From: Candidatus Pacearchaeota archaeon
GTDB lineage: Archaea; Nanobdellota; Nanobdellia; Pacearchaeales; GW2011-AR1
Assembly: GCA_019659125.1 (NCBI GenBank)
Contig: JAIFVX010000003.1
Coordinates: 807 to 64,806 of the forward strand
DNA: 64,000 bases
Direction of reading: 5' to 3'
Shown: positions 16,232 through 43,962 of the stretch, in pieces
Layout of the letters: each line of letters begins with the position of its first letter
Position numbering within the stretch: the stretch's first letter is position 1
Notes under the pieces: generated by a model
Database searches by the model: none
The model's input: only the letters and a program-made list of their open reading frames with translations
Told to the model about the DNA's origin: nothing
Made by a program: the position numbers and the translations under genes

Positions 16232-16591
16232 TTATAATTGGCTGAGAATACTAAATGCGGCAATCCAGCACGCACCATATAATATGGATACTATGGTTCC
16301 TAGTATCACAAACGCTTTTGCAAGCCGCAATTGACTTCTTTTCTTATAGACACCTGCAAGAACAAAATTAAGGATAATAAGAATTATAGGTCCTCCAAAG
16401 ATAAGAACGACTGCCATGATTGATAAAAATCCGTAAACAGATCGAAGAACGATAGACCCTGATGAATAAGCAAAACCTTGAATCAGAGTCGAAATAAACC
16501 ATAGTATCGCGACCCCAGCTACAACCGCGATATTGATGAGAAATGCTCTTCCTATACCTGGATCATCTTCTGATTGATATTTTCCATCCAT
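16232..16591 (-). CDS. Small membrane protein (paralog of 16591..16911)
   Basis: 3-4 TM. Shared C-terminal motif ...ILYGACWIAAFS. Confidence 0.5.
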   Translation of the reverse strand: MDGKYQSEDDPGIGRAFLINIAVVAGVAILWFISTLIQGFAYSSGSIVLRSVYGFLSIMAVVLIFGGPIILIILNFVLAGVYKKRSQLRLAKAFVILGTIVSILYGACWIAAFSILSQL

Positions 16592-16911
16592 TACCAGCTA
16601 CCCACAGTCGCCCAGCAGGCTCCGTAAATAATTAACACAATAGCGCCTATAATTGCAAGCATTTTAGCTGACCGAGTATTTCCTTTTTTACGCTCTCTGG
16701 CTGCCATGATAAAATTAGCAATTGCCGCAATGGGAAGAGGCGCTGCAACCATCAGAACAATGATAAGAATGCCCTGATCATTTCTTCCAAAGAACCCAAG
16801 CCAGGACGATATAAACATAAAGGCGTAAAGGATGAGAATGACTGCAAGGATAATAAGAACCGTAAATCCGAGAGCCTTACCAAAGGTACGTAACGATGTT
16901 TCTTCTTTCAT
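16591..16911 (-). CDS. Small membrane protein (paralog of 16232..16591)
   Basis: 3 TM. ...LIIYGACWATVGSW. Overlaps the radical SAM stop. Confidence 0.5.
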   Translation of the reverse strand: MKEETSLRTFGKALGFTVLIILAVILILYAFMFISSWLGFFGRNDQGILIIVLMVAAPLPIAAIANFIMAARERKKGNTRSAKMLAIIGAIVLIIYGACWATVGSW

Positions 16912-18368
16912 CTGAGTATAGGAAGAGCAACTCCTCTTTGTGGAGTTTCAGAAGGAACGATCTCTTCACGTAATTGACGTAACTTTTCTTCCATACCTTG
17001 TCTGTAGAATAAATTCATGGTTTCTATAGGGATGAGTTTCTCTCCTTTTGGGTCGACAATATGAACACATGACTTCTTGACTGCCCGGACACTGAAATCG
17101 TATGCATCCATAAATCGAATGCCTATGATCCTAAACAGATTCTCGTATTTAAAGCTTGGGGCAGATACTTGAGGAAGACAACACAAAAGCGTTTGAAGCG
17201 AGTCGCTGGCCGTCTCATGAGAGCTTCCTGTGCTAAATATCTTCATCATCAGACTTTTCCTCAATTGAGGATCATGTTCGAACACAATAGTGTTCCTCGC
17301 TCCTTCAATAAGTGTTTTTGGGTCAAGGTATCGTGTTAGGGGATGCACTTGTCCGTTGAAACGCAACGCATATCCCATGAAGATAGAGTCTGGATTACAA
17401 GGCACAGGAATGATATCATTAGGCTGGAAAATACTAGTTTGGTCAAGAATTGCCTGGCGGACTTCTGTCAACGTATATCTTTCAGTCACTGGATTGAAAT
17501 TGTCATTCCTTCCTGCGCGTTGCGTTGGTTGGAAGGTAACCCCTCGAACGGATCGCTGTTCCAATCCATATTTTATTATCTTTCCAATTTCATCAGTGTT
17601 CACTCCTCGCTGGAGTGTTGACACGAGAGTCGCTGGAAAATTCCTCTCATTGAGGTGTTCAATGGCCTTGTATCTAACATCGGTCAAATCTTCACCTCGT
17701 ATCTTTGTCAATGCTTCAGATTTGAAGGAATCAAACTGCAAATACATTTCAAGGCGAGGCATATACTGAGCGAGACGATCAGCAAAGCCAGGCTCTCGTG
17801 CGATTCTTACCCCATTGGTATTCACCATGAGGTTTTTTATCGGTCTTTTCTTTGCTTCATCGAGAATCTCAAAGAATTGGGGATGAACGGTAGGCTCTCC
17901 TCCTGAAATCTGGACAACATCGGGTTCTCCTTCGCTTCTTACGACAAGATCCATCATTTTTTTCACCTCATCCAATGATCTATGACTTCCAGACGAGGGC
18001 GATGAAAGGGTAAAGCATGTAGGGCATGAAAGATTGCATCTATCGGTAATCTCAATCAATGTCAGACATGAATGTTGTTCATGATCAGGACATAAACCGC
18101 AATCGTAAGGGCAGTTATATTTCATCTTTGTCTGGAAGAATCCGGGCATCTCGCTGTGCTTTAGAAACACTTCCCTTCCTTGACGGTAATAGTTTGCATC
18201 AGTTGACAAAAGGACTCTTTCATGCCCGTGTTCCCTGCAGTACTTGTCCATGAAAACTCGATTATCCTTAAGAATCACCTTTGCAGGGACTCTTCTCAAA
18301 CAGTCCGGATCTTTTGAGCACAGGCTTTCATCTTGGTCATAGTAGAGATAATTACGTGTTTTTTCCAT
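16908..18368 (-). CDS. Radical SAM enzyme, COG1964 / MJ0619 (tetraether lipid synthase Tes/GDGT-MAS)-like
   Basis: CNLSCPTC (CxxxCxxC), preceded by CPYDCGLCPDHEQHSC and an N-terminal Cys/His region (CREHGH). Family placement is from memory of the MJ0619-type layout. Confidence 0.6.
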   Translation of the reverse strand: MEKTRNYLYYDQDESLCSKDPDCLRRVPAKVILKDNRVFMDKYCREHGHERVLLSTDANYYRQGREVFLKHSEMPGFFQTKMKYNCPYDCGLCPDHEQHSCLTLIEITDRCNLSCPTCFTLSSPSSGSHRSLDEVKKMMDLVVRSEGEPDVVQISGGEPTVHPQFFEILDEAKKRPIKNLMVNTNGVRIAREPGFADRLAQYMPRLEMYLQFDSFKSEALTKIRGEDLTDVRYKAIEHLNERNFPATLVSTLQRGVNTDEIGKIIKYGLEQRSVRGVTFQPTQRAGRNDNFNPVTERYTLTEVRQAILDQTSIFQPNDIIPVPCNPDSIFMGYALRFNGQVHPLTRYLDPKTLIEGARNTIVFEHDPQLRKSLMMKIFSTGSSHETASDSLQTLLCCLPQVSAPSFKYENLFRIIGIRFMDAYDFSVRAVKKSCVHIVDPKGEKLIPIETMNLFYRQGMEEKLRQLREEIVPSETPQRGVALPILR

Positions 18369-18374
18369 TGCTAT

Positions 18375-19112
18375 TTACTCCGTGTTGTATAGAAACATGA
18401 TATAATATCCTGCCCCTATAAGGCTTGCAAGCTGAATTGCTGACAGGCCTAGAATAAGTGGATTAAGTGGCTTTATAAATTCTATTGCAATTCTGAATGT
18501 AAGGTATCCTATAACAAAGAGCTTGAACCTCACTCCAGGCTTTAATCTCCATTTTCTTTCAATCCCAAGAATAACAAGCCAGAGAATTCCAAGAAATACA
18601 ATTTCGTAAAGAGAAGTAGGATGACGTGGAAGACCATCTCCCTGGTCAAATGCCCAGGGGACTGAAGAGACAATGCCCACTGTTCTATCACTAACACCTG
18701 TGAGAAAACAACCAATCCTTCCAATAATCATTCCTAATATTAACGGATATGTGAACAAGTCTCCTGAAGGTCTTTTTTCTCCAATGATTTTCTTGGTTAT
18801 CTCTACTCCGATAATTGCTCCCAGAATGCCTCCAACGATCGTCTTTCCCTGGATGTAGTAGAGGAAAGAAGAAGGGTGGAAAAATGAAGCAGGATCTTCA
18901 AGGCTTGCGAGTAACCGTGAAAAAAGCAGTGCTCCAATAGCTCCTCCTAGAATGATGCTTTCCCGATTAGAAAAATGAAGCGGATCCCTCTGCTTCTTCT
19001 GAAGATGGAAATAAAAAACAAATGCGAAGAAAAATGCAAGAATTTCAAACACGGAATGAGAAGGAATAGCAACACTTCCTATATGGAAGTTAATAGGGAA
19101 CTTCATTTCCAT
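18375..19112 (-). CDS. lgt: Prolipoprotein diacylglyceryl transferase (Lgt)-like membrane protein
   Basis: GRIGCFLTG ... PWAFDQGDGLPRHPTSLYE resembles the Lgt signature (GR[IL]GNF ... HPxxLYE). Polytopic. Confidence 0.6.
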   Translation of the reverse strand: MEMKFPINFHIGSVAIPSHSVFEILAFFFAFVFYFHLQKKQRDPLHFSNRESIILGGAIGALLFSRLLASLEDPASFFHPSSFLYYIQGKTIVGGILGAIIGVEITKKIIGEKRPSGDLFTYPLILGMIIGRIGCFLTGVSDRTVGIVSSVPWAFDQGDGLPRHPTSLYEIVFLGILWLVILGIERKWRLKPGVRFKLFVIGYLTFRIAIEFIKPLNPLILGLSAIQLASLIGAGYYIMFLYNTE

Positions 19113-19137
19113 TATATGAAATGAGTGTTTAAATTAG

Positions 19138-19878
19138 TTACTTCTTTGCAGGTTTCTTTTCAGGAGCTTTAGCGGCTTCCTTCTTTTCAGCTGCTGGGGC
19201 TGCTGGAGTTGCTCCTGGGGCTGCTGGAGTTGCTCCTGGGGCTGCTGGAGTTGCTCCTGGCGTCGCTGCTGCGGCTGCTGCCTTAGCTGCTTCCTCAGCT
19301 GCTTTGGCTTCCTCAAGAGCTTTCTTAGCCTTCTCCTGTTCTGCTTTTCTGATTGCAAAGAACCGTGCAAGGTCTGCTTTCTTCTCGGCAGATGGCTCGG
19401 TCACAGCGTTCTTAATCTCGTGATCATATTTTCCTGAATCAATATCCTTCTCTATGTCTTTTGCTTCCTTATTATCAACAAGAACTCCAAGAGAGACACA
19501 CGTGCCTACAACGAGCTTGACTGCTGATTTCAAGTTCTTTGCAAGCAAGTTAGACATCTTTGTCTGTGCAATAGAGATTATTCTTTCAAGAGCGATATTA
19601 CCAACTTTTGTCGTTTTAGCCTCTCCTGAGCCTTTTTCTGCATTAATTTCCTTTTTGATAAGCTCTGCAACAGGTGGAGAAAATACTTTGATCTTATATG
19701 ACTTCGTCTTTGCGTCAACATCAATCTCGACAGGAGCCTTCATTCCTTTGAAACCATGAGTTGCTGTATTTACATCTGCAATAACCTTTCCTAGGTTGAT
19801 TCCCATAGGACCCAGCTGCTGAGCTACTGCTGGACCTGGCTTCATATCTCCTCCGTCAACGATTAATTTAACTTTCAT
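19138..19878 (-). CDS. rpl11: Ribosomal protein L11 with ~85-aa Ala/Pro/Lys/Glu-rich C-terminal extension
   Basis: MKVKLIVDGGDMKPGPAVAQQLGPMGINLGK... Start at ATG 19878, preceded by GGGAGGAAGAGG. The tail contains PGATPAA x3. Confidence 0.85.
   Translation of the reverse strand: MKVKLIVDGGDMKPGPAVAQQLGPMGINLGKVIADVNTATHGFKGMKAPVEIDVDAKTKSYKIKVFSPPVAELIKKEINAEKGSGEAKTTKVGNIALERIISIAQTKMSNLLAKNLKSAVKLVVGTCVSLGVLVDNKEAKDIEKDIDSGKYDHEIKNAVTEPSAEKKADLARFFAIRKAEQEKAKKALEEAKAAEEAAKAAAAAATPGATPAAPGATPAAPGATPAAPAAEKKEAAKAPEKKPAKK
19196..19258. repeat. Perfect 21-bp x 3 tandem repeat (ggggctgctggagttgctcct) inside the L11 tail
   Basis: Read directly from the sequence. Encodes PGATPAA x3 on the minus strand. 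Confidence 0.9.
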
Positions 19879-20329
19879 CCTCTTCCTCCCTATCTTCACG
19901 CCTTATAACCTTTACGTTATCCATCTTGACCGTTACAGGGATAGGGACAGATGCCCCAAGAAGTGAAACGACCACTTCCCCCTTTGCCTTGTCAACTCGA
20001 GTAACTTTAGCCTTTTCATTCTTGAATGGCTCTGCAATCATTTCCACGACGTCACCAATCTCAATCTTGAAGTCCTCAACCTTAGGCTCAAGCATATTCT
20101 TGATTTCCTCATACGTAAGGGTCTTGCCAATAATTCCTTTTACATACGGCAAATTGAATGCTGCCTCTTCTGCTGAATCTCGGTCAGCAGCCTCGAGAAT
20201 AATATATCCTTTCAACCCGTGAGGTCGAATGACAGAGTAAACATTGATGTTCTTTTTCTCAGCGCGGTCGCTAATCATCTCGACTGCCCTGTCTTCCTTG
20301 TTCGTTGTTACTTTGATAATAAATATCAT
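19868..20329 (-). CDS. spt5: Transcription elongation factor Spt5 (NusG)
   Basis: NGN domain followed by KOW (GDVVEMIAEPFKNEKAKVTRVDKAKGEVVVSL). Confidence 0.85.
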   Translation of the reverse strand: MIFIIKVTTNKEDRAVEMISDRAEKKNINVYSVIRPHGLKGYIILEAADRDSAEEAAFNLPYVKGIIGKTLTYEEIKNMLEPKVEDFKIEIGDVVEMIAEPFKNEKAKVTRVDKAKGEVVVSLLGASVPIPVTVKMDNVKVIRREDREEEDES

Positions 20330-34039: not shown

Positions 34040-34225
34040 ATGAATATTCATAGTAAAAAGATAGTGCAATACATCTCCAAAGAAGAGGTAGTAACTAGTT
34101 CTGAAATAGCAAAACTTTTGAAGGTCTCATGGAATACTGCTGAGAAATATCTTCTTGAACTTCTTATCGAGGGAAAAGTCAGGCGTATAAAAAAAGAGGG
34201 GGTTAACATATGGCTCGGAAAATGA
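34040..34225 (+). CDS. Small winged-helix DNA-binding protein
   Basis: 61 aa. VTSSEIAKLLKVSWNTAEKYLLELLIEGKVRRI. Confidence 0.55.
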   Translation: MNIHSKKIVQYISKEEVVTSSEIAKLLKVSWNTAEKYLLELLIEGKVRRIKKEGVNIWLGK

Positions 34226-34971
34226 AACGGGGGCAGATGGCGATATGGATTATCCTCGCCATTGTGTTAGTGGGGACAATGATCTTGTTCTTCACCGTCG
34301 AAAGAAAGGTAAACACGACGCAACCAGAGATACTCAGCCCTGAACTTCAAGTCAGGCAATGCACCAAGGAGGCAGTGAATTCCGTTCTTGCACAAACGCT
34401 TCCGCATGGAGGATTTGTCGAGCCGAGAAATACAAAGCTCTACAAGGGAATCAATATATCTTACCTATGCGACAACATAGGATTCTACAAGCCTTGCATC
34501 AATCAGCATCCTCTTCTCATCAAGGAAATGAACGCTGAGATCAAGGAGAAGATCACCCCTGAACTTCAGACATGCTTCTCTATTATTGATGGAGATTATG
34601 CCTCTCGAAATGCGGAGTTGGAGACTGGTCCATTAAGCTTTGATGTGAGACTCGCTCCTGGAAGAGTGTATGTAGATATCAATAGAAGTATGACTATTAC
34701 ACAGAGAGGATCAAGCAGGACATTCTCATCATACCAGGTTGAAATCCCTAGCCCTGCATATGATCTTGGCTCTATCGCTTCAGAGATTGCAAGTCAGGAA
34801 GCAAAATACTGCTACTTTGAGTATGTTGGATACATGCTTCTTTACCCTTCATTCAGGATATCAAAGACAGCATTACCTGATTCCACTAAGATTTACACTA
34901 TCACTGACAAAAAATCAGGAGATGCTATGAATATCGCCATCAGGAGTTGTGCGATACCTCAAGGAATATGA
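34222..34971 (+). CDS. Type IV pilin-like protein (class III signal), paralog of 38780..39586
   Basis: ATG 34222 forms an ATGA overlap with the wHTH stop (alternative ATG 34210). MKRGQ|MAIWIILAIVLVGTMILFF. Conserved Cys pattern shared with its paralog. Confidence 0.6.
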   Translation: MKRGQMAIWIILAIVLVGTMILFFTVERKVNTTQPEILSPELQVRQCTKEAVNSVLAQTLPHGGFVEPRNTKLYKGINISYLCDNIGFYKPCINQHPLLIKEMNAEIKEKITPELQTCFSIIDGDYASRNAELETGPLSFDVRLAPGRVYVDINRSMTITQRGSSRTFSSYQVEIPSPAYDLGSIASEIASQEAKYCYFEYVGYMLLYPSFRISKTALPDSTKIYTITDKKSGDAMNIAIRSCAIPQGI

Positions 34972-37900
34972 GAACGAACATTATTGTAGGCATTGAAATC
35001 ATACTTCTTATCAGCATGAGCTTTGCAATCTCGTATACTCTTCATGCTGAAGATAGCGTTGCATATGATTACAACCAATCTCCTAAAGATTTAGCATTTA
35101 AGATTATAAATCACCTATTCGGAAAGGGGATAGTTTCGGCACTCGACTCCTCTGATTTGAAGAATGGAGTCTCAACCTGTCTGCTTTCAAAGAATAATAA
35201 GGTATGCCAAGAATATCCCTCCAGTGAATGCGGGGGCAAGTGTACAACTGCATGCATTCCTTCTTCAAAATCCCAAGTTTCTGCATGCAGTGTTGGAACG
35301 TGCGTCGATCCTGTTGAAGGTATATGTCAGCCTGGATCCCCTAAATCTGCATGTGAGAATGATGGGGGACAATGGTATAATGATCCCAACGGAAATATAG
35401 CCCAATGCAAGCTTGGATGTTGCCTCCTTGGAGACCAGGCAAGTTTCATCACTTCACAACAATGTTCGCGTAAATCTGTGCTTCTTGGTGTCACGAGCAA
35501 TTTCAAGCCCGAGATAGGAAGTGAGATCGAATGCCTTGCTCTTGCAAAGACGCAAGAAGAGGGGGCATGCGTCTATGAACAAGACTTTCAAAAAAGCTGC
35601 ACGTTTACTACAAAGGCTTCATGCCTGCAGAAGACAGGAAGAGCAGATTCATTTTATCCAGGATTGCTGTGCTCAAATCCAGCATTGAACACGACATGCA
35701 AGAAACAGGCACGGACTGCATGTGTCGAGGGCAAAGATGAGATCTATTGGTTTGACAGCTGTGGAAACAGGGAGAATATCTATGATGCTAATAAGGCTCA
35801 GAGCTGGAATGAAGGTAAAGTATTAGCAAAACAAGACAGCTGTACACTTGATGCTGGAAAAAATCTTCTTGCCCATCAAAGCAGTTGCGGAAACTGCAAT
35901 TATTTCCTCGGCAGTATATGTGGTCAAAAAGCAGGAAATCAGAAATTATCTGACTCTTCACAAAATGTTGTTTGCAAAGATCTATCCTGTACTGATGCCC
36001 AAGGGAAAAAGAGAAAAAATGGGGAGAGCTGGTGCGCCTATCAGGGTTCTATCGGCGTCGATGAGAAGAACAATCGGGCCACTGATACCCCTGGCAGCAG
36101 CCATTATAGGGAAGTATGTATCGATGGAGTAATACAAACAGAAGCCTGCGCTGATGCACGAAGAGAGGTATGCATCGAATCGCAGACGCAGACAAATTAT
36201 GGAAAAATATCTTCCGCTGCATGCAGGGCTAATCTCTGGACTCAATGCTCTGAGTACAACACCGAAGTCACGGGAGAAGGAAATGCACGAATAGCATCGG
36301 AAAAGCAGAGAGATAACAAATGCTCACAAAATCCTGATTGCTTTGTCAAAAAAGTAGATATTTCTGACAATTTCAAATTCAATCTCTGTGCTCCACGGTA
36401 TCCTCCCGGATTTGATCTTTCGGCCAACTCTGATAGTGCTGAAATGGTGTGCGGGCTTGCTAGCCAGACATGCACTGCCATCTATGTAAAGAAGCTCTTT
36501 TCCGGATGGAAGTGCGAAGCGAATTGTGAATGTGAAGATGCTATCTTCACGGAAAAGATGAATGATCTTTGTATTAGTTTAGGGGATTGTGGGGCAAAAG
36601 TCAATTATAACGGACAATACAGAAAAAATTACCAGGCCTATAACGCTGAAAAAGTTCCTGACTCTTATATTGAAGGATTGAAGAAATATTCTGCAACGGT
36701 AACTGGACAATTCGCGGATGCTGGTTCATATAAGCAATTTTACACAAGCCTAGGGATTCCAAGCGATCTAGGGGCTGCAGGAAAACTTAAGGATCAAAAC
36801 GAGGCTGCACTCAAGGCTGCACTCGTAACAAGTGGCTCGGCAGGCATCCTTGTGCTTGCAGCATATCATGCAGGAATCGCATCATCATTTGGTGCTGGAG
36901 GGGCTGCAATCATCTCAAAGATTCCTATCTTGTCAAGCCTTGTCGGAAAAAGCGCAGGAGTATCGTCTGCTGTAGCAGATCCTACAGGAGAATTTGGAGT
37001 AGCTGCCAATCCCTCTATCGCCGCCTATGGAGGTGCAGTTGCGGGAGCATCTCTAGGTCTTGCTGTCACTTCCCTTTTGATTAAGTTCACAGGCATAGGT
37101 CCAGGGCTTGACCCATACGTGACCAACTCCTTACTTGTTGCAGGGGCTTATTCAGGAGCAATCATTGGAGCAAATATTGGAAGTGGGGGTACAGGGATAT
37201 TCGGTGGACTAGGTGCAAGTGGATCTGCATCACTTGCTTTTGCATGGGTCATAGGAGTCGCAATTGTCCTAGCGATCGTCATATTCAAACTCTTGGGTAT
37301 CGGGAAGACAAAAGAGGTGAAGGTTGAATTCCAGTGCCAGCCCTGGCAGGCACCTACTGGAGGAAAAGCGTGCAAGCAATGTGGAAAAGATGGATTTCCA
37401 TGTACGCCGTATGCCTGCCATTCTCTTGGACAGACATGCGAGTTCGTGAATGAGGGATCGGGACAGGAAGCATGTATTGATAATAATCCTAATGATGCTT
37501 CTCCTCCAGTCATCCATCCACTCAAGAAAGTATTAGCTGAGGGATACAGTTATCAGGACGAAAATGAGAATGGTGTGAAACTTGTGGGACCTGAAGAGTG
37601 TATCAAAGCATATACTCCTGTAACCTTTGGAGTTGGCCTTGACGAACCCGGACAGTGTAAGTATGATGTAGAACATACGCAGTCCTATGATGATATGGAA
37701 TTTTATGTAGGGGATAGAAATCTCTACATCAGGAACCACAGCATGGCATTCACACTTCCTTCGCTTGAAAGTTTGGGGCTTCCAGGGTATGAACCAAGCA
37801 GGAAAGCAAACTATAACATGTACATCAGATGCGAGGATACGAATGGAAATAAGAACGAGAAAGAATATGCGATAAACTTCTGCGTGAAGCCTGGAGAAGA

Positions 37901-38783
37901 CCTCACACCTCCATCCATTTCCCCTGGGGATTACAACGAGTATGTTGCATATAACGCCACGTCAGTTGTTGCAAGCATCTACACAAGCGAGCCAGCTGAA
38001 TGCAAATGGGATACTAATGATAAGGAGTATGATGCTATGGCCTACTCATGGGTGTGCGATAGCGGGTTTGAAAACCAGACGTTTCTTGGATGGAAGTGCT
38101 CAGCAACACTTCCTATAAACAACGATTCTACCTTCTCTGTGCGATGTAGCGATCAGCCCTGGCTGAATGCAAGTACAAAGAGAAATGAAAATCATGAGAG
38201 CTATCCACTTACCTTCAAGAAATCGAAGATTCCTCTTACTATTACCTCCCTGACTCCTGACAACTCGACTATTATCGCCGGCACTGATGCTGTCTCAGTT
38301 GAGGTAGTTGCTAAAGTATCGGGAGGTGCTGATGGGACAGCGAAATGTAGTTACAAGATCGATAATTATTATGTTGATTTCCTGGACACCTTGAAGAGTG
38401 AGAGCAGGAATGTTTTCAACCAGTTCACTCCAGGAGCAAAAGTGCTTGCCGTAAAATGTGAGGATCGGGCAGGAAATAGAGCGGAAAGAACTGCAAGATT
38501 CAGCATTGAGCTTGACAGTGCAGCTCCTGAAGTCACGCGAGTCTACGAAAAGAGCGGTTCACTGGTTGTCATTACCAATGAGCCTGCACGTTGCTCATTT
38601 GTCCATTTCCTAAACAGAACTAGGGATACCTGCAGCTTCCAGTTCCCAGAAGGGGAAGTGTTGGAGGGGAGTGATTTGATCCATACGGCGCCTCTCGAGC
38701 AATTACCCTATTATATCAAGTGCAAGGATCGATTTGAGAATATAGCGGGAGCATGCAGCATGATCGTGCAGGCAAAGGTATGA
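34968..38783 (+). CDS. Giant (1271 aa) Cys-rich membrane/surface protein, fusion of 39583-type and 41836-type proteins
   Basis: ATGA overlap start. Layout: signal anchor IILLISMSFAISY, ~550-aa Cys-rich domain, ~170-aa Gly/Ala-rich hydrophobic region, then a ~480-aa C-terminal region with 4 repeats. Confidence 0.7.
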   Translation: MRTNIIVGIEIILLISMSFAISYTLHAEDSVAYDYNQSPKDLAFKIINHLFGKGIVSALDSSDLKNGVSTCLLSKNNKVCQEYPSSECGGKCTTACIPSSKSQVSACSVGTCVDPVEGICQPGSPKSACENDGGQWYNDPNGNIAQCKLGCCLLGDQASFITSQQCSRKSVLLGVTSNFKPEIGSEIECLALAKTQEEGACVYEQDFQKSCTFTTKASCLQKTGRADSFYPGLLCSNPALNTTCKKQARTACVEGKDEIYWFDSCGNRENIYDANKAQSWNEGKVLAKQDSCTLDAGKNLLAHQSSCGNCNYFLGSICGQKAGNQKLSDSSQNVVCKDLSCTDAQGKKRKNGESWCAYQGSIGVDEKNNRATDTPGSSHYREVCIDGVIQTEACADARREVCIESQTQTNYGKISSAACRANLWTQCSEYNTEVTGEGNARIASEKQRDNKCSQNPDCFVKKVDISDNFKFNLCAPRYPPGFDLSANSDSAEMVCGLASQTCTAIYVKKLFSGWKCEANCECEDAIFTEKMNDLCISLGDCGAKVNYNGQYRKNYQAYNAEKVPDSYIEGLKKYSATVTGQFADAGSYKQFYTSLGIPSDLGAAGKLKDQNEAALKAALVTSGSAGILVLAAYHAGIASSFGAGGAAIISKIPILSSLVGKSAGVSSAVADPTGEFGVAANPSIAAYGGAVAGASLGLAVTSLLIKFTGIGPGLDPYVTNSLLVAGAYSGAIIGANIGSGGTGIFGGLGASGSASLAFAWVIGVAIVLAIVIFKLLGIGKTKEVKVEFQCQPWQAPTGGKACKQCGKDGFPCTPYACHSLGQTCEFVNEGSGQEACIDNNPNDASPPVIHPLKKVLAEGYSYQDENENGVKLVGPEECIKAYTPVTFGVGLDEPGQCKYDVEHTQSYDDMEFYVGDRNLYIRNHSMAFTLPSLESLGLPGYEPSRKANYNMYIRCEDTNGNKNEKEYAINFCVKPGEDLTPPSISPGDYNEYVAYNATSVVASIYTSEPAECKWDTNDKEYDAMAYSWVCDSGFENQTFLGWKCSATLPINNDSTFSVRCSDQPWLNASTKRNENHESYPLTFKKSKIPLTITSLTPDNSTIIAGTDAVSVEVVAKVSGGADGTAKCSYKIDNYYVDFLDTLKSESRNVFNQFTPGAKVLAVKCEDRAGNRAERTARFSIELDSAAPEVTRVYEKSGSLVVITNEPARCSFVHFLNRTRDTCSFQFPEGEVLEGSDLIHTAPLEQLPYYIKCKDRFENIAGACSMIVQAKV

Positions 38784-39586
38784 GACGCAACAATTATAAA
38801 CAAAATTATTCTTTGACTGGCATGCAATTCGGCAAAAGAGGACAGCTTGCGATTATCATTATTATAGCCATTGTCATTATCGCTGCCGTTCTTATCTTTT
38901 TTTTCTATCCACGGATAGGGCCAAGCATATCAACTACCTTCTCTCCCACTAAATATCTGGAATCATGCATCGATCCAGTATTTTCCTCGACCTTGACAAC
39001 AGTAACGAAACAGGGAGGATATCGCGATCCTCAAGGGTTTGCATTATACCAGGGGGAGAAGATAAAATATCTCTGTTACACTTCTGAATATTATACAACC
39101 TGCTCTGTACAGCAACCTATGATCAAGAATCATGTTGAGGATGAACTTGCTCAAGCATTGCGGGAAAAGGCACAAGAGTGCATGCAGGGATTAAAGAGTG
39201 AATACCAATCACGAGGATACAGTGTCTCTTCAGGCCCTGTAAGTAGTGATGTCTCAATTATCCCTGGAAAAATACAGGTTCATTTTATAGCACCTCTAAC
39301 GGTAACAAAGAATGGCGCAACGCAAAGCTTCAAGGGGTTTGATGTCGAGAAAAGCAGCCAGTTATATGATCTCTTGTTCACTGCAAGCAGCATCATCGAT
39401 TACGAATCTTTCTATGGAGATTCTGAGACTACCTTATATCTCCAGTATTATCCTGACTTGAAGATTGAGAAAACAAAACTGAGCGATGGGACAAAGATTT
39501 ATACACTCTCAAATGTTGTGACTAAAGAAACATTTACCTTTGCCTCTAGGAGCCTTTCATGGCCCCCAGGGTATGGATTAGAATGA
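38780..39586 (+). CDS. Type IV pilin-like protein (class III signal), paralog of 34222..34971
   Basis: ATGA overlap start (alternative ATG 38822, MQFGKRGQ|LAIIIIIAIVIIAAVLIFFF). Aligns with its paralog, e.g. GGYRDPQGFALYQGEKIKYLC versus GGFVEPRNTKLYKGINISYLC. Confidence 0.6.
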   Translation: MRRNNYKQNYSLTGMQFGKRGQLAIIIIIAIVIIAAVLIFFFYPRIGPSISTTFSPTKYLESCIDPVFSSTLTTVTKQGGYRDPQGFALYQGEKIKYLCYTSEYYTTCSVQQPMIKNHVEDELAQALREKAQECMQGLKSEYQSRGYSVSSGPVSSDVSIIPGKIQVHFIAPLTVTKNGATQSFKGFDVEKSSQLYDLLFTASSIIDYESFYGDSETTLYLQYYPDLKIEKTKLSDGTKIYTLSNVVTKETFTFASRSLSWPPGYGLE

Positions 39587-41112
39587 TCACAAAAACTCAC
39601 ATGATTCGCCTCGGCATCTTTATTGCAGCATTTGCAGTACTACTCGCATCAGCGTCAGCCTTGAATGCCACTGTATGCTGTGAGAAGACTACCTCTGGAG
39701 AGTTTTGCCAAAACGTCCCTAGCAGCCAATGCGCTCCAGGTTCAAGACAGGTGCAAAGCTCATGTGATTCTGTTTCCTATTGCAAGCCAGGAGTATGCTA
39801 TGATTCTAAGGAAGGGACGTGCTCGAGCAAGACTTCGCAATTAGTATGCAACGCAAACAATGGGACATGGAGTGAGCAGTCGCCTCCTCAATGTGCCTTG
39901 GGATGTTGCACACTCGGGGACCAGGCAGCGTTTGTCTCTCTTGTTCGATGCAAGAAGCTCTCAGGATTTCTTGGTCTGCAAACAAATTATAACAGCGGTA
40001 TAAAAGATGAGACACAATGTATCCTCTCTGTACAAAACCAGGATAAGGGTGCATGTGTTTATACATTTGAATTCGAAAAAACATGTAAGTTCACGACGAG
40101 GGCTGAATGCTCTTCAGGCGTGAATGGAACTGGAAAAGGAGCATTCTTTAAAGGGAAACTATGCTCGGCTGAAGAGCTCGGCACTACGTGCGGACCGACA
40201 AAGCCAGCAAAGACGACATGTATTCCGGGAAAAGATGAGGTGTACTTTGTTGACACGTGTGGAAATGCGGCAAATATCTATGATGCCAGCAAAGTAAATG
40301 ATCCAGACTACTGGACCAATATAAAAGATAAGAGCGAATCCTGTAATCCGAGCGGTGCGAATGCAAACTCCGCCGGATGCGGGAATTGCAATTACTTGCA
40401 GGGAAGTGTATGTAGACCTTCCGAAACAGGAAAAAAAGCTACTTATGGAAGCACTATGTGCGCTAACTTGAACTGCGTGAACACGCAGAACGGTAAATCA
40501 TACAAACATGGAGAGAGCTGGTGCGTGTACAATGATGAGGGAACTACGGGAGAAGGAAAAGATGCTGTAGGAAGCAGATTCTATAAGCATATTTGCATCA
40601 ACGGCGAGGAAGTTCTTGAGCAATGTGCTGACTTCAGACAGGAGGAATGTATCGAAGACAAAATACAGGTACCGCAAGGAACGTTCTCACAGGCAGCATG
40701 CAGGGTCAACCGATGGCAGGATTGTGTTGCACAAACTGATCAGCTTGATTGCCAGAATAAGGACAAGCGTGACTGCTACTGGCAACCTGATGTGAAGCTT
40801 CCTCAATATGAGGCGAATGAGACTATCACGGGAACATGCCTTCCCATAAATCCTCCAGGGTTGAAATTCTGGGAGGGTGAAGAGGCAAAGACTATCTGTG
40901 CGCAGGGCAATGCAGCATGCGTCGTGACTTTTGAGAAAGGATTGTTTGGAGGAGAGAAATGCTCGAAGAATTGCGAGTGCCTTGATGGAACATGGCAGAA
41001 AGAGAGAAGCGATCTCTGCGTAAGCTTGGGAGACTGCGGACCAAATGTAAACTGGATCGGGCAACAAGGGTACAAGCCAGGGTATAATATCTCTATAACA
41101 AAAATAAAGTAG
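39583..41112 (+). CDS. Secreted Cys-rich protein (509 aa), homolog of the N-terminal half of 34968..38783
   Basis: ATGA overlap start. Signal peptide LGIFIAAFAVLLASASALNA. About 43 Cys by my count. Collinear conserved blocks (GCC.LGDQA.F, C.GKDE.Y..D.CGN..NIYDA, CGNCNY, GESWC, LC.SLGDCG). Confidence 0.7.
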   Translation: MITKTHMIRLGIFIAAFAVLLASASALNATVCCEKTTSGEFCQNVPSSQCAPGSRQVQSSCDSVSYCKPGVCYDSKEGTCSSKTSQLVCNANNGTWSEQSPPQCALGCCTLGDQAAFVSLVRCKKLSGFLGLQTNYNSGIKDETQCILSVQNQDKGACVYTFEFEKTCKFTTRAECSSGVNGTGKGAFFKGKLCSAEELGTTCGPTKPAKTTCIPGKDEVYFVDTCGNAANIYDASKVNDPDYWTNIKDKSESCNPSGANANSAGCGNCNYLQGSVCRPSETGKKATYGSTMCANLNCVNTQNGKSYKHGESWCVYNDEGTTGEGKDAVGSRFYKHICINGEEVLEQCADFRQEECIEDKIQVPQGTFSQAACRVNRWQDCVAQTDQLDCQNKDKRDCYWQPDVKLPQYEANETITGTCLPINPPGLKFWEGEEAKTICAQGNAACVVTFEKGLFGGEKCSKNCECLDGTWQKERSDLCVSLGDCGPNVNWIGQQGYKPGYNISITKIK

Positions 41113-41179
41113 ATTTTGTACTTTCTCAATAGTGATAACAAATAGTAAGATTTAAATATTCATCATTAGTATGATTTCT

Positions 41180-41794
41180 ATGAGAAATTCAATCAAAAAG
41201 AATCTTGCAATGATTGTCCTAGGTTCTACTATGGCTGCCGGACTATCAGGATGCGGTGCTGCAATGCAGATGGCTGCTCCTTTCTCTAAGACTGTAGAAG
41301 CTGGTATGGCTCTTAATGCGGCAGGTCAGGCAGTAACTGCCTATGAAGTTGCTGAAATGAATAAAACTGAGGTCAACGTTACGGTACAGCAGCCTCAACC
41401 TAATCATCCTGTATATCATAAATATCTTGGAGCACTCGAGATCTGCAACGACCCGGTAGGAGGGACCATTGTACTTACTACCTGCAAAGAATTCAAGGAT
41501 TATGATGGTGATGGGATTATAATGTTTCCCCATGAATATAGAGGGAAAAAAGAACGTTTTTCTAAAAACGAGAATATTTCTATCGCTGTTGGTGTAGAGA
41601 ATAAGGTAAGTGGCATTCATTATATTCTTAAGGATGGGGAAAATAAAACAATTAAGGACTTCTTGATAGAACAGGACTCGTATGGAACGCATGACGACTT
41701 TAAAGAGGGAGAGCTTGAAACAGGCACCTATACTGCTGAATTTTATCTCAAAAACAGGCCTCTTGGAAAGCTCAAATTTACTGTAGAGGACTAA
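41180..41794 (+). CDS. Putative lipoprotein (lipobox LSGC)
   Basis: MRNSIKKNLAMIVLGSTMAAGLSGC. ATG 41180 fits TATA-like tttaaata at 41151-41158 (track start is 41171). Confidence 0.5.
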   Translation: MRNSIKKNLAMIVLGSTMAAGLSGCGAAMQMAAPFSKTVEAGMALNAAGQAVTAYEVAEMNKTEVNVTVQQPQPNHPVYHKYLGALEICNDPVGGTIVLTTCKEFKDYDGDGIIMFPHEYRGKKERFSKNENISIAVGVENKVSGIHYILKDGENKTIKDFLIEQDSYGTHDDFKEGELETGTYTAEFYLKNRPLGKLKFTVED

Positions 41795-41835: not shown

Positions 41836-43962
41836 ATGCAAAAGGTGCGCAGAAAAATAGGTGTTTTTCCAGTAGTTTTCATCCAACTATTCCTTCTTGT
41901 CAGCATGAGTTTTGCTGTTGCGTTCATCATTTCAAGCGAGAGTGTCTCTGCTGTCGATCCTGGAATTACTAACGTTCCTACAAAGTCTGCCCCACTCCCT
42001 AATAGGCCGTCTATCGGAGATGATACACCTAATTTGGGACAAGCGGCGCCGGCCGCTGCAGGAACGGGTGGTGGTACCTTGACAAAGGCAACAGGAGGAA
42101 ATGCATTCAAGAATATCTATGGTGGACATCTGTTTGGCATTGGCCCTGAGAGTTCTCTTGTTGCAGGATTAGCATGGGCAGCGACTGCATATTTTGCAGT
42201 AAAACTAGTGGCAGGATTGTTTGGAGCAAGTCCAGGCCTTACCAATGCGCTTGCAACATCGGTTGGAGTTGCTGCAGGGGTTGGTGGATTCCTTCAGTCT
42301 GCATGGGCTGGACAGGCAACTACCTTAGCGAATAATCCTATTCTTAGTATTTTTGTTGAGCATCCGTGGATTACTAGCATTGGGATTGGAGTGGTTATTT
42401 TTGTATTAACGTATAGATCTGAGAAAAAACAACTTGTTAGCTTCCAATGCCTGCCTTACGAGCCCCCATTAGGAGGAAGCCAATGCGAGCAGTGCAATAA
42501 AGATCCTTTTAGACCCTGCTCTGAATATCGATGCCAATCCCTGGGGCAGGCATGCAAGCTCTTGAATCCTGGAACGACAAATGAGAAGTGCACGTGGGTA
42601 AGCAAGTTTGATGTCAACTCTCCGGTGATTGAAGTCTGGAACCTGGCACTTTCTCCTCAAGGATTAAAATTCACACCCGATGATGCAATACGTCCTCCAA
42701 ACCGTGGAGTAAAAATACAGGCATCAAACGGTGGATGCTTGCCTGCATATACTCCATTGAAGTTTGGACTGCAGACGAATGAACCTGCACAGTGCAAGAT
42801 CGATTACAACAATAACGCATCGTTCAAAGACATGCAATATTATTTTGGAGAAAGCAATTATTATGAATACAATCATACGCAGACATTACGTCTTCCAGGA
42901 CCAGATACTGGAGTGCAAGGAACGCTATCACCGATCTTACAGAATGATGGGACGTTCAACCTCTATGTTCGATGCCAGGATGCAAATGGAAATGCTAATG
43001 TTGATTTGTTTGCTATAAACTTCTGCGTTGATAAGGGTCCTGACACAACCCCTCCTTTGATTGAAGCAACTTCAATTATTTCAGGAAGTCCTGTCCGGTA
43101 CAACGCTGATAATGTGCCGATGCAAGTGTTCGTGAATGAACCTGCACAATGTAAATGGAGCAGATCGGATAAGGATTACAAGGATATGGAGAACTCAATG
43201 CAGTGCGGCACTGAAAGCTATCAGGTCAATGCAAACTTGCAATACACCTGCTCGGGAAACCTTACAGGAATCAAGAACAGAGAGAGCAATACATTCTACT
43301 TCAGATGTGAAGACCAGCCAAACAAAGCTGAGAGCCAAAGGAATCCTATGCGGCAGAGTACTGCTCTTGTACTACGAGGAAGCCAGCCATTGAACATTGT
43401 GAGCGCACAGCCTAACGGAACAATCTATGGAAGCACTGAGACAATTCCTATGACTCTTTCAGTTCAAACGGATGATGGAAGCGATGAAGGGAAAGCAACC
43501 TGCTACTTCTCATCAACAGGAGCACAAAACAGTTACACCTCAATGATTAATACCAATGACTTCAAGCATAGTCAGCCTCTTGACCTGCCTTCAGGAACAT
43601 ACACTTATTTCTTCAGATGTATTGATGCTGGAGGAAATGCTGCAGATGCTAAGATCTCATTTAGTGTTATCGCTGATAGAGAAGCACCTAGTGTAACACG
43701 AGTATATCGGGATAGCACCGATAGTATGAAAGTCATAACCAATGAAGATGCTGAATGTGCGTACTCATTAAATAGCTGCGACTTCACTCTTAAAGAAGGA
43801 ACTGCGTTGCTTTCAACGCCAAGCAATAAAGTTGCCCATTTCGGACCTTGGAAACCAGGAGTGACGTACTACATAAAATGTAAGGACTTGCTAGGAAATG
43901 AACCAAGTCCTAACGAGTGCAGTCTTATTGCGAGTGCAACGCAGATTGCGAAGCAGCTCTAG
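41836..43962 (+). CDS. Membrane/surface protein (708 aa), homolog of the C-terminal half of 34968..38783
   Basis: Signal anchor LFLLVSMSFAVAF (compare LLISMSFAISY), Gly/Ala-rich hydrophobic region, then FQCLPYEPPLGGSQCEQC... and 4 repeats collinear with the fused protein. Confidence 0.7.
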   Translation: MQKVRRKIGVFPVVFIQLFLLVSMSFAVAFIISSESVSAVDPGITNVPTKSAPLPNRPSIGDDTPNLGQAAPAAAGTGGGTLTKATGGNAFKNIYGGHLFGIGPESSLVAGLAWAATAYFAVKLVAGLFGASPGLTNALATSVGVAAGVGGFLQSAWAGQATTLANNPILSIFVEHPWITSIGIGVVIFVLTYRSEKKQLVSFQCLPYEPPLGGSQCEQCNKDPFRPCSEYRCQSLGQACKLLNPGTTNEKCTWVSKFDVNSPVIEVWNLALSPQGLKFTPDDAIRPPNRGVKIQASNGGCLPAYTPLKFGLQTNEPAQCKIDYNNNASFKDMQYYFGESNYYEYNHTQTLRLPGPDTGVQGTLSPILQNDGTFNLYVRCQDANGNANVDLFAINFCVDKGPDTTPPLIEATSIISGSPVRYNADNVPMQVFVNEPAQCKWSRSDKDYKDMENSMQCGTESYQVNANLQYTCSGNLTGIKNRESNTFYFRCEDQPNKAESQRNPMRQSTALVLRGSQPLNIVSAQPNGTIYGSTETIPMTLSVQTDDGSDEGKATCYFSSTGAQNSYTSMINTNDFKHSQPLDLPSGTYTYFFRCIDAGGNAADAKISFSVIADREAPSVTRVYRDSTDSMKVITNEDAECAYSLNSCDFTLKEGTALLSTPSNKVAHFGPWKPGVTYYIKCKDLLGNEPSPNECSLIASATQIAKQL

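Follow-up and report, generated by a model that had tools for sequence, protein, structure and literature searches.

The 64,000-nucleotide stretch analyzed here (hereafter the window) comes from a Candidatus Pacearchaeota archaeon (assembly GCA_019659125.1, contig JAIFVX010000003.1, positions 807 to 64,806 of the forward strand) and carries, at 41180–41794 on the plus strand, a gene for a 204-residue protein whose N-terminus bears a bacterial-type lipobox. This protein is a member of a so far unnamed conserved family of small lipobox surface proteins. We think it probable that it belongs, as a conserved lipobox surface protein, to a split surface module whose two halves flank it, and that the Lgt-like gene lying 22 kb away in the same window is part of another cassette and not its dedicated partner; lipidation of the protein and its role as an adaptor are what we infer from these observations. 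Since the attachment of lipids to archaeal lipobox proteins is only partly solved, the locus offers a conserved, syntenic candidate substrate in a lineage devoid of the known lipidation and signal peptidase II enzyme families.

Simple longest-ORF calls, made for this analysis, place the gene between an ATG at 41180 and a stop at 41794. Its product begins with MRNSIKKNLAMIVLGSTMAAGLSG↓CGAAMQ (arrows denote cleavage-type positions throughout), in which a short, Lys-rich n-region (MRNSIKK) is followed by the uncharged h-region NLAMIVLGSTMAAGLSG, directly after which the lipobox L-S-G-C, residues 22–25, provides the cleavage-type site LSG↓C25. Lipobox calls were made with regular-expression rules as coded in this analysis; the protein fits the PROSITE PS51257-style rule as well as the Gram-positive G+LPP pattern, and the canonical lipobox that a preliminary description of the sequence had read at this place is thereby confirmed. 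The codon of Cys25 (TGC, 41252–41254, plus strand) would specify the lipid-attachment and +1 residue. Because no twin-arginine motif was found in the signal, export of the protein by Sec is predicted.

A word-indexed homolog search with the 204-residue protein returned one weak match only, and a search for related loci with this single protein gave none; an exhaustive HMMER search of 1.84 billion representatives returned 46 lipobox-family proteins. When 33 sequences sharing 22–35% identity with the query were aligned, the only invariant columns were M1, G24 and C25 (the last in 33/33); because nothing else remains invariant at such divergence, the lipobox of this family is under selection and not a product of chance. 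The arrangement of K/R residues, h-region and [GAS]C was found in 36 of the 46 library representatives with the Cys at positions 20–39, and those without it are mostly visibly truncated at the N-terminus or devoid of a signal peptide. Gly stands at −1 in 34 and Leu at −3 in 18 of these 36 proteins, giving the consensus L-[SGTNA]-G-C. Elsewhere, conservation is seen in the C-terminal ~110 residues, with the motif C-N-Y-x-x-D-F-N-x-D-G-x-x-D-x-P-x-E-x-x-G-I-K. Between genera the lipobox protein is about 25–30% identical and the flanking half proteins 42–68%; it evolves fast, yet its place and its Cys are retained.

That place is the 723-base space between the genes of two half proteins. The upstream one (N-half, 39559–41112, plus strand) encodes a secreted, Cys-rich protein of 517 residues that lacks a membrane anchor and whose signal looks cleavable (ASA↓LN). 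The downstream one (C-half, 41836–43962, plus strand) encodes 708 residues, in which a signal anchor is accompanied by Ig-like repeats and by a hydrophobic segment rich in Gly and Ala. Both align with a fused paralog of 1278 residues (34947–38783, plus strand), in which N-half, hydrophobic Gly/Ala segment and C-half form one chain; its residues 56–562 match the N-half (36% identity, E 2e-90) and its residues 683–1276 the C-half (33% identity, E 4e-85). The preliminary description had placed the lipobox gene between the halves of a split paralog, giving the first half as 509 residues, and apart from that length its placement was right. At the head of each module stands a protein whose N-terminal motif suggests a class III (prepilin-like) signal: one of 277 residues (38753–39586, plus strand; KRG↓QLAIII) leads the split module, and a paralog of 253 residues (34210–34971, plus strand; KRG↓QMAIWI), itself preceded by a 61-residue helix-turn-helix (HTH) gene at 34040–34225, leads the fused one.

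With the fused protein as query, matches were obtained in 21/21 genomes of the organism's family, and in at least nine other genera of that family N-half, lipobox protein and C-half follow in the same order. Fused paralog, N-half, lipobox match and C-half follow one another in six genomes (G190, G158, G227, G151, G237 and G144) and again in G125, there with two family matches; in G188, G103 and G101 the lipobox match lies just upstream of the C-half, and the contig ends there. In ten fetched loci, tblastn shows the order HTH gene, pilin-like gene, fused gene, pilin-like gene, N-half, gap and C-half, after which Hjc and LysRS often come, as they do in the window. Of the 10 related loci read, 9 have lipobox-type signals in the ORFs at the equivalent place, both flanking halves being on the locus in six; such signals end, for instance, in ..VLLGVTLGGQSG↓C, ..GSSLYMSG↓C, ..AIAVFSSG↓C, ..GVLAGGTG↓C, ..ALIVPIVAG↓C and ..MAAGVLAG↓C, and some of these ORFs stand in tandem pairs. 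Orthologs of the halves in related loci are 43–68% (N-half) and 42–56% (C-half) identical to those of the window. The lipobox gene was initially described as inserted at the split point, which the comparison contradicts: the three genes, flanked by Hjc and LysRS, have an order that goes back to the family's ancestor, an old arrangement and not a recent insertion.

Beside the fused 1278-residue gene of the window no lipobox ORF was found, and among the family matches listed none adjoins the fused gene in 8 of the 10 syntenic relatives. The idea that the lipobox protein is the remnant of a linker lost at the split was ruled out, since it has no sequence similarity to the fused protein. Moreover, the signal anchor of the C-half (41836–41960; ..IQLFLLVSMSFAVAFIISSES) resembles that of the fused protein (34968–35070; ..IEIILLISMSFAISYTLHAED), unlike the signal of the N-half, and therefore the split pair does not derive from a simple cut of one gene.

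As for what the protein does, we propose that it would be exported by Sec, be held on the outer surface of the membrane by its N-terminal Cys25, either through lipidation or at least through an uncleaved signal peptide, and display an Ig-like beta-sandwich raised on a stalk of helices and Q/N-rich sequence. In its domain order, signal peptide (residues 1–24) and lipobox are followed by a helical linker (~25–60), a Q/N/P-rich spacer and the C-terminal Ig-like beta-sandwich (residues ~80–203; 41417–41788, plus strand). The AlphaFold2 model has a mean predicted local distance difference test (pLDDT) score of 81.6, with 90–98 in the beta-sandwich and a disordered signal peptide. The lipobox gene is a fixed part of the split version of a duplicated surface module composed of the prepilin-like protein, the Cys-rich N-half, the lipoprotein and the membrane-embedded C-half with its Ig repeats. 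Within it, the most likely role would be that of a membrane-anchored adaptor, which would hold or assemble the anchorless secreted N-half beside the membrane-embedded C-half and so replace the covalent link of the fused paralog. The lipobox protein is also a marker of the split version of this large, uncharacterised surface module of DPANN archaea, and a testable candidate for the piece joining its halves.

The preliminary description had called for a search for Lsp and other maturation homologs, and in the host genome (808,890 bases in 5 contigs) none was detected with PF01252 (Lsp), with PF01889 (DUF63, the family of AliA/AliB; E ≤ 1) or with PF01963 (a Tiki/TraB-type protease proposed to be lipoprotein-associated). 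No Lsp-like ORF was retrieved by phmmer with an in-order Lsp query together with motif scans of all genome ORFs of at least 80 residues, and no second Lgt-like paralog by a custom Lgt hidden Markov model. Judged from these searches, the enzyme that would lipidate Cys25 is apparently not among the canonical Lgt, Lsp, AliA/AliB and Tiki/TraB families in this genome.

The distribution of the same families was then compared over 251 genomes of the order, ~205 of which belong to the organism's own family (a share estimated from the listed genomes). The lipobox family occurs in 69 genomes, all in the organism's own family. PF01790 (Lgt) is present in 49, of which 37 are in other families and 12 in the own family (10 of these above the cut-off), and PF01252 in 42, of which 38 are in other families and 4 among the ~205. 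Lipobox family and PF01790 meet in four genomes only (G000, G130, G221 and G263), where independence predicts about four; a PF01790 match is absent from 65 of the 69 lipobox-family genomes, and PF01252 was found in 0/69. In the organism's family, the two are independently distributed. PF01889 was above cut-off in 0/251 genomes, while it was detected in the controls M. jannaschii, H. volcanii and M. acetivorans.

Several points weigh against our reading of a lipid-anchored adaptor of the split module. Lipidation and cleavage at Cys25 are predicted from pattern rules, the adaptor role is drawn from synteny, and the position itself is not absolute, the family member being displaced in G130, G131, G096 and G016. 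A selected lipobox in a lineage with no known lipidating enzyme is a tension in its own right, and the Cys may have a different function. With the assembly 85.6% complete, an enzyme gene could have been missed in the host genome; for the family as a whole this is unlikely, because the enzymes are absent from ~190 relatives too. Finally, the cassette Lgt-like enzyme, which keeps the Lgt fold and the equivalents of R143, Y235, R239 and E243, could act on Cys25 opportunistically. With these points in mind, we still read Cys25 as probably lipidated.

The tension just named is where the main alternative enters, to which we give a minor but real share of credence: the signal would be an uncleaved anchor, the Gly-Cys would carry no lipid, and the Cys would form an intermolecular disulfide or other thiol link with the Cys-rich N-half or with the C-half. 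Such an anchor agrees with the want of any known lipidation or signal peptidase II gene in the genome or the ~190 relatives, with the Cys-rich nature of the partner proteins and with the lack of a general +1 Cys enrichment in the genome. What it leaves unexplained is that the whole signal follows lipoprotein grammar, from the short K/R n-region through a h-region of 10–15 residues to L-x-G-C with the Cys at 20–39; that a second, unrelated small protein of the genome has LLAAG↓C; and that the lineage comes from a class with near-universal Lgt and Lsp. A lipidated lipobox protein is the reading that we keep.

A different question is whether the Lgt-like gene at 18375–19112 (minus strand, 245 residues), outside the lipobox locus, would be the enzyme concerned. 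In this proposal, which the preliminary description had raised as an Lgt and lipobox substrate pair, the encoded enzyme would be the diacylglyceryl or archaeol transferase for Cys25, and enzyme and substrate would have come together from bacteria; we consider it improbable. The identification of the gene as Lgt-like stood: its product matches PF01790 with 91 bits against a gathering cut-off of 24.9, over model positions 1–235 of 240, and the only significant PDB match of its AlphaFold2 model (pLDDT 87.3) is E. coli Lgt (5AZB, E 1.3e-7, TMq 0.61). It shares with E. coli Lgt (5AZB/5AZC) the Lgt fold with a 7-transmembrane-like topology and the motifs G-R-x-G, Y-x3-R-x3-E and PRHPxxLYE, the last kept as PRHPTSLYE, and no other candidate enzyme is present in the genome, all of which favours the pairing. 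Residues reported as essential or important in E. coli Lgt are Y26, H103, R143, N146, E151, G154, Y235, R239 and E243. Equivalents of R143, Y235, R239 and E243 are retained, while those of Y26, H103 and N146 are changed to H, V and C, respectively, and the E151/G154 region is not alignable; canonical DPANN Lgt proteins likewise have Cys at the N146 position. The substitutions speak against the pairing, as does a score of 58.4 bits against the NCBIfam Lgt equivalog TIGR00544, below the cut-off of 118.9. The protein further differs from E. coli Lgt in its length of 245 residues with a reduced periplasmic head, and in being encoded in an operon with genes for a Tes-like radical S-adenosylmethionine (SAM) protein and small Cys-motif membrane proteins, with no Lsp partner anywhere in the genome.

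The distribution described above, with 65 of the 69 lipobox-family genomes lacking PF01790, argues against such a pair, and all syntenic loci examined (9/9) come from Lgt-less genomes. In addition, a close copy of the Lgt-like gene was found in 0/40 relatives, the best match being 34% identical, and in every locus checked it is accompanied by a radical SAM gene and by genes for small proteins that bear their own Cys motif. The pairing of the Lgt-like gene with the lipobox gene is not supported, and the former should not be taken for the missing archaeal enzyme, since it is part of another cassette.

That cassette is shared by Bacteroidota, CPR bacteria and DPANN archaea. In the window, the constant neighbour of the Lgt-like gene is a gene for a Tes/TrsS/HMPTM-like radical SAM protein of 486 residues (16908–18368, minus strand), which resembles Tes and TrsS, yet scores under both family cut-offs. 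A radical SAM gene (443–469 residues) lies directly after the Lgt-like gene in 3/3 other loci, from Chryseolinea, a Pacearchaeota metagenome-assembled genome (MAG) and Peregrinibacteria; in two of the three the radical SAM protein has the HMPTM zinc ribbon, and in all three (L010, L011 and L012) small membrane-protein genes follow it, as they do in the window. There, two small paralogous membrane proteins of 106 and 119 residues are encoded at 16232–16911 on the minus strand (16591–16911 and 16232–16591) and end in ..IYGACW.. and ..LYGACW... A small-small-Cys motif in the last hydrophobic segment is common to 5/5 small cassette proteins, being IYGAC and LYGAC in the window and GFSAC, GGGIC and GFGAC in the other three cassettes. 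These small membrane proteins are candidates for the enzyme's own substrates, and the cassette probably acts either on them or on lipids.

The Lgt-like protein belongs to a divergent subfamily of PF01790. Its homologs run into thousands, and the top 120 are 50–62% identical. Saprospiraceae, Chryseolinea, Peregrinibacteria, Parcubacteria, Saccharibacteria, Methylacidiphilum and two DPANN MAGs are named as sources among the top homologs, so that the close ones are mostly bacterial, judged by the few source names given; the canonical Lgt of other DPANN relatives is only 26–34% identical. An Lgt phylogeny had been suggested at the outset as a test of bacterial origin. The quick tree that was built sets the cassette clade apart from canonical DPANN Lgt by a long branch with 100% support, and its three archaeal cassette members are not monophyletic. 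Sporadic acquisition of the cassette by horizontal transfer is the simplest reading.

There is finally the view that an orphan gene which evolves fast has come to match the lipobox pattern by chance, which the single weak homolog of the word-based search and a genome-wide number of lipobox matches no higher than composition predicts might seem to favour, and which is already refuted by the 46 representatives of the full HMMER search, the invariance of G24 and C25 in 33 divergent sequences and the synteny and signals kept at the related loci, so that we give it practically no weight.

The preliminary description held that Lgt homologs are uncommon in archaea, which does not apply to this lineage: of 401 genomes sampled from the phylum, 338 gave PF01790 matches and 336 PF01252 matches. 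Almost all of these genomes are members of the host organism's class, and the scores were strong, reaching 275 bits for PF01790. In that class canonical Lgt and Lsp are near-universal; the organism's own family is the exception, having lost both. Eleven single-contig genomes with Lgt and Lsp carry on the same contig an aIF5A that is 36–54% identical to the aIF5A of the window. In one of the Lgt- and Lsp-carrying genomes, G067, Lgt lies at C1:183207-183986 and Lsp at C1:252355-252819, the latter with the motifs NYGAAF, NLFDR and FNLAD, which we take to include the catalytic Asp pair. Lgt and Lsp genes are adjacent in G040, G048, G053 and G196. In two families of the order canonical Lgt is found near the aIF2-gamma gene, immediately adjacent in G027 and separated by two small ORFs in G067 (L003:2242-3480 and G067:C1:181082-182311); this neighbourhood may be conserved.

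According to reviews, archaea lack homologs of Lgt and Lsp, a repeated claim which the near-universal occurrence in this DPANN class contradicts. Our literature search brought up no publication that connects these archaea with either enzyme, and NCBI records do name such archaeal proteins prolipoprotein diacylglyceryl transferase. The canonical Lgt and Lsp of other Nanoarchaeia-type DPANN, which belong to the same class as the host organism and are absent from its genome and from almost all of its family, presumably represent the ancestral pathway from which the lipobox grammar of the host derives. Tentatively, and with less than even confidence, we suggest that a family which lost Lgt and Lsp, never had AliA and keeps an invariant lipobox Cys may lipidate or process its lipobox proteins with an undiscovered enzyme. 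If this is true, the family is a natural loss-and-replacement experiment, and the lipobox protein described here is its traceable substrate. The contrast within the class, between families with the enzymes and a family without them, could be mined for the replacement.

Set beside known systems, the protein resembles bacterial Sec lipoproteins (lipobox [LVI][ASTVI][GAS]C, Lgt/Lsp pathway) in the grammar of its signal and in its build of anchor, flexible stalk and small globular domain. It differs from them in its archaeal host, whose genome has no canonical Lgt, Lsp or Lnt-type candidate, and whose membrane lipids would be archaeal or scavenged. The nearest archaeal counterparts are the haloarchaeal lipobox proteins matured by AliA and AliB, in which the Cys is needed for maturation (PMC12462473, PMC13631571). 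AliA and AliB (arCOG02177 and arCOG02178; DUF63, PF01889) were described in haloarchaea in 2025 (PMC12462473), and HVO_2859 (AliA) of Haloferax is annotated as a DUF63 family protein (PMC9426492). In contrast to that system, no DUF63 protein was above cut-off in the 251 genomes of the order, the signal is of Sec and not of Tat type, and there is only a handful of substrates per genome. Predicted lipoproteins were reported to be prevalent in DPANN, including some genomes with lipoproteins and neither AliA nor AliB, and an additional archaeal lipidation pathway was postulated (PMC12462473).

The number of lipobox proteins in the host genome, which the preliminary description had proposed to count, is small. 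A genome scan with the pattern rules gave 5–8 matches, of which only 2–4 are convincing, namely the 204-residue protein and C1:544856-545290, with C1:341361 and C1:535520 as possible ones. When every other residue was swapped into the pattern genome-wide, Cys was not enriched at +1 relative to its frequency. In the relative G067 (single contig, 710,724 bases), which has both Lgt and Lsp, about 6 good candidates were counted against the 2–4 of the host genome, and Cys is the most enriched +1 residue in G067 only and not in the host genome; the contrast is in the expected direction and small, and our reading does not rely on it. Outside the window, C1:544856-545290 (plus strand) encodes a protein of 143–144 residues that begins with (M)MKFKGLIPLVLLAAG↓CQSHQ.., has LLAAG↓C and is unrelated to the 204-residue protein.

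Regarding the remaining features, class III signal proteins, aIF5A, L40e, Hjc and the P0/P1 stalk are also encoded in the window. Upstream of the 41180 start, a further ATG in the same frame (41171) would add MIS to the lipobox protein. A TATA-box-like element, TTTAAATA, lies at 41151–41158 on the plus strand, ~26 nt upstream of the ATG at 41180, a spacing that fits an archaeal TATA box placed ~26 nt before a leaderless start. If TTTAAATA is truly a TATA box, the gene might have its own promoter and a leaderless mRNA, with the start at 41180.

No Pfam or NCBIfam family was matched by the 204-residue protein. Foldseek searches with the beta-sandwich gave generic Ig-like matches only, the best being 6oe6 and 3n6y with target-normalised template modelling (TM) scores of ~0.5–0.6, and its nearest structural neighbours (6oe6, 3n6y and 4g5a) are small bacterial Ig-like proteins whose function is not known; as a functional lead the fold search was dropped. 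The domain contains a DxDxDG-like loop, DYDGDG at residues 107–112, which is found in 32 of the 46 family members. The label of an EF-hand was abandoned for it, as the strict pattern fits 3/46 members only, and DxDxDG-like was retained.

Two contexts outside the common order deserve mention. Around the nearest metagenomic homolog, P0002 (L009), there are small genes and not the split module, and its signal peptide occurs there a second time. This second copy belongs to an ORF directly after P0002 (L009:2858-3366), which has a near-identical signal peptide (..GLTLAGILGLGSAGMQG↓C) and continues in another frame as a 133-residue ORF; it represents a tandem paralog with a frameshift or else results from a sequencing error. 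In G130, the gap between N-half and C-half (L019, G130:C16, ~18950–20250) holds two small ORFs, HEPN-like and nucleotidyltransferase-like by eye, and no lipobox protein; the lipobox-family gene of this genome lies after the C-half, on the opposite strand.

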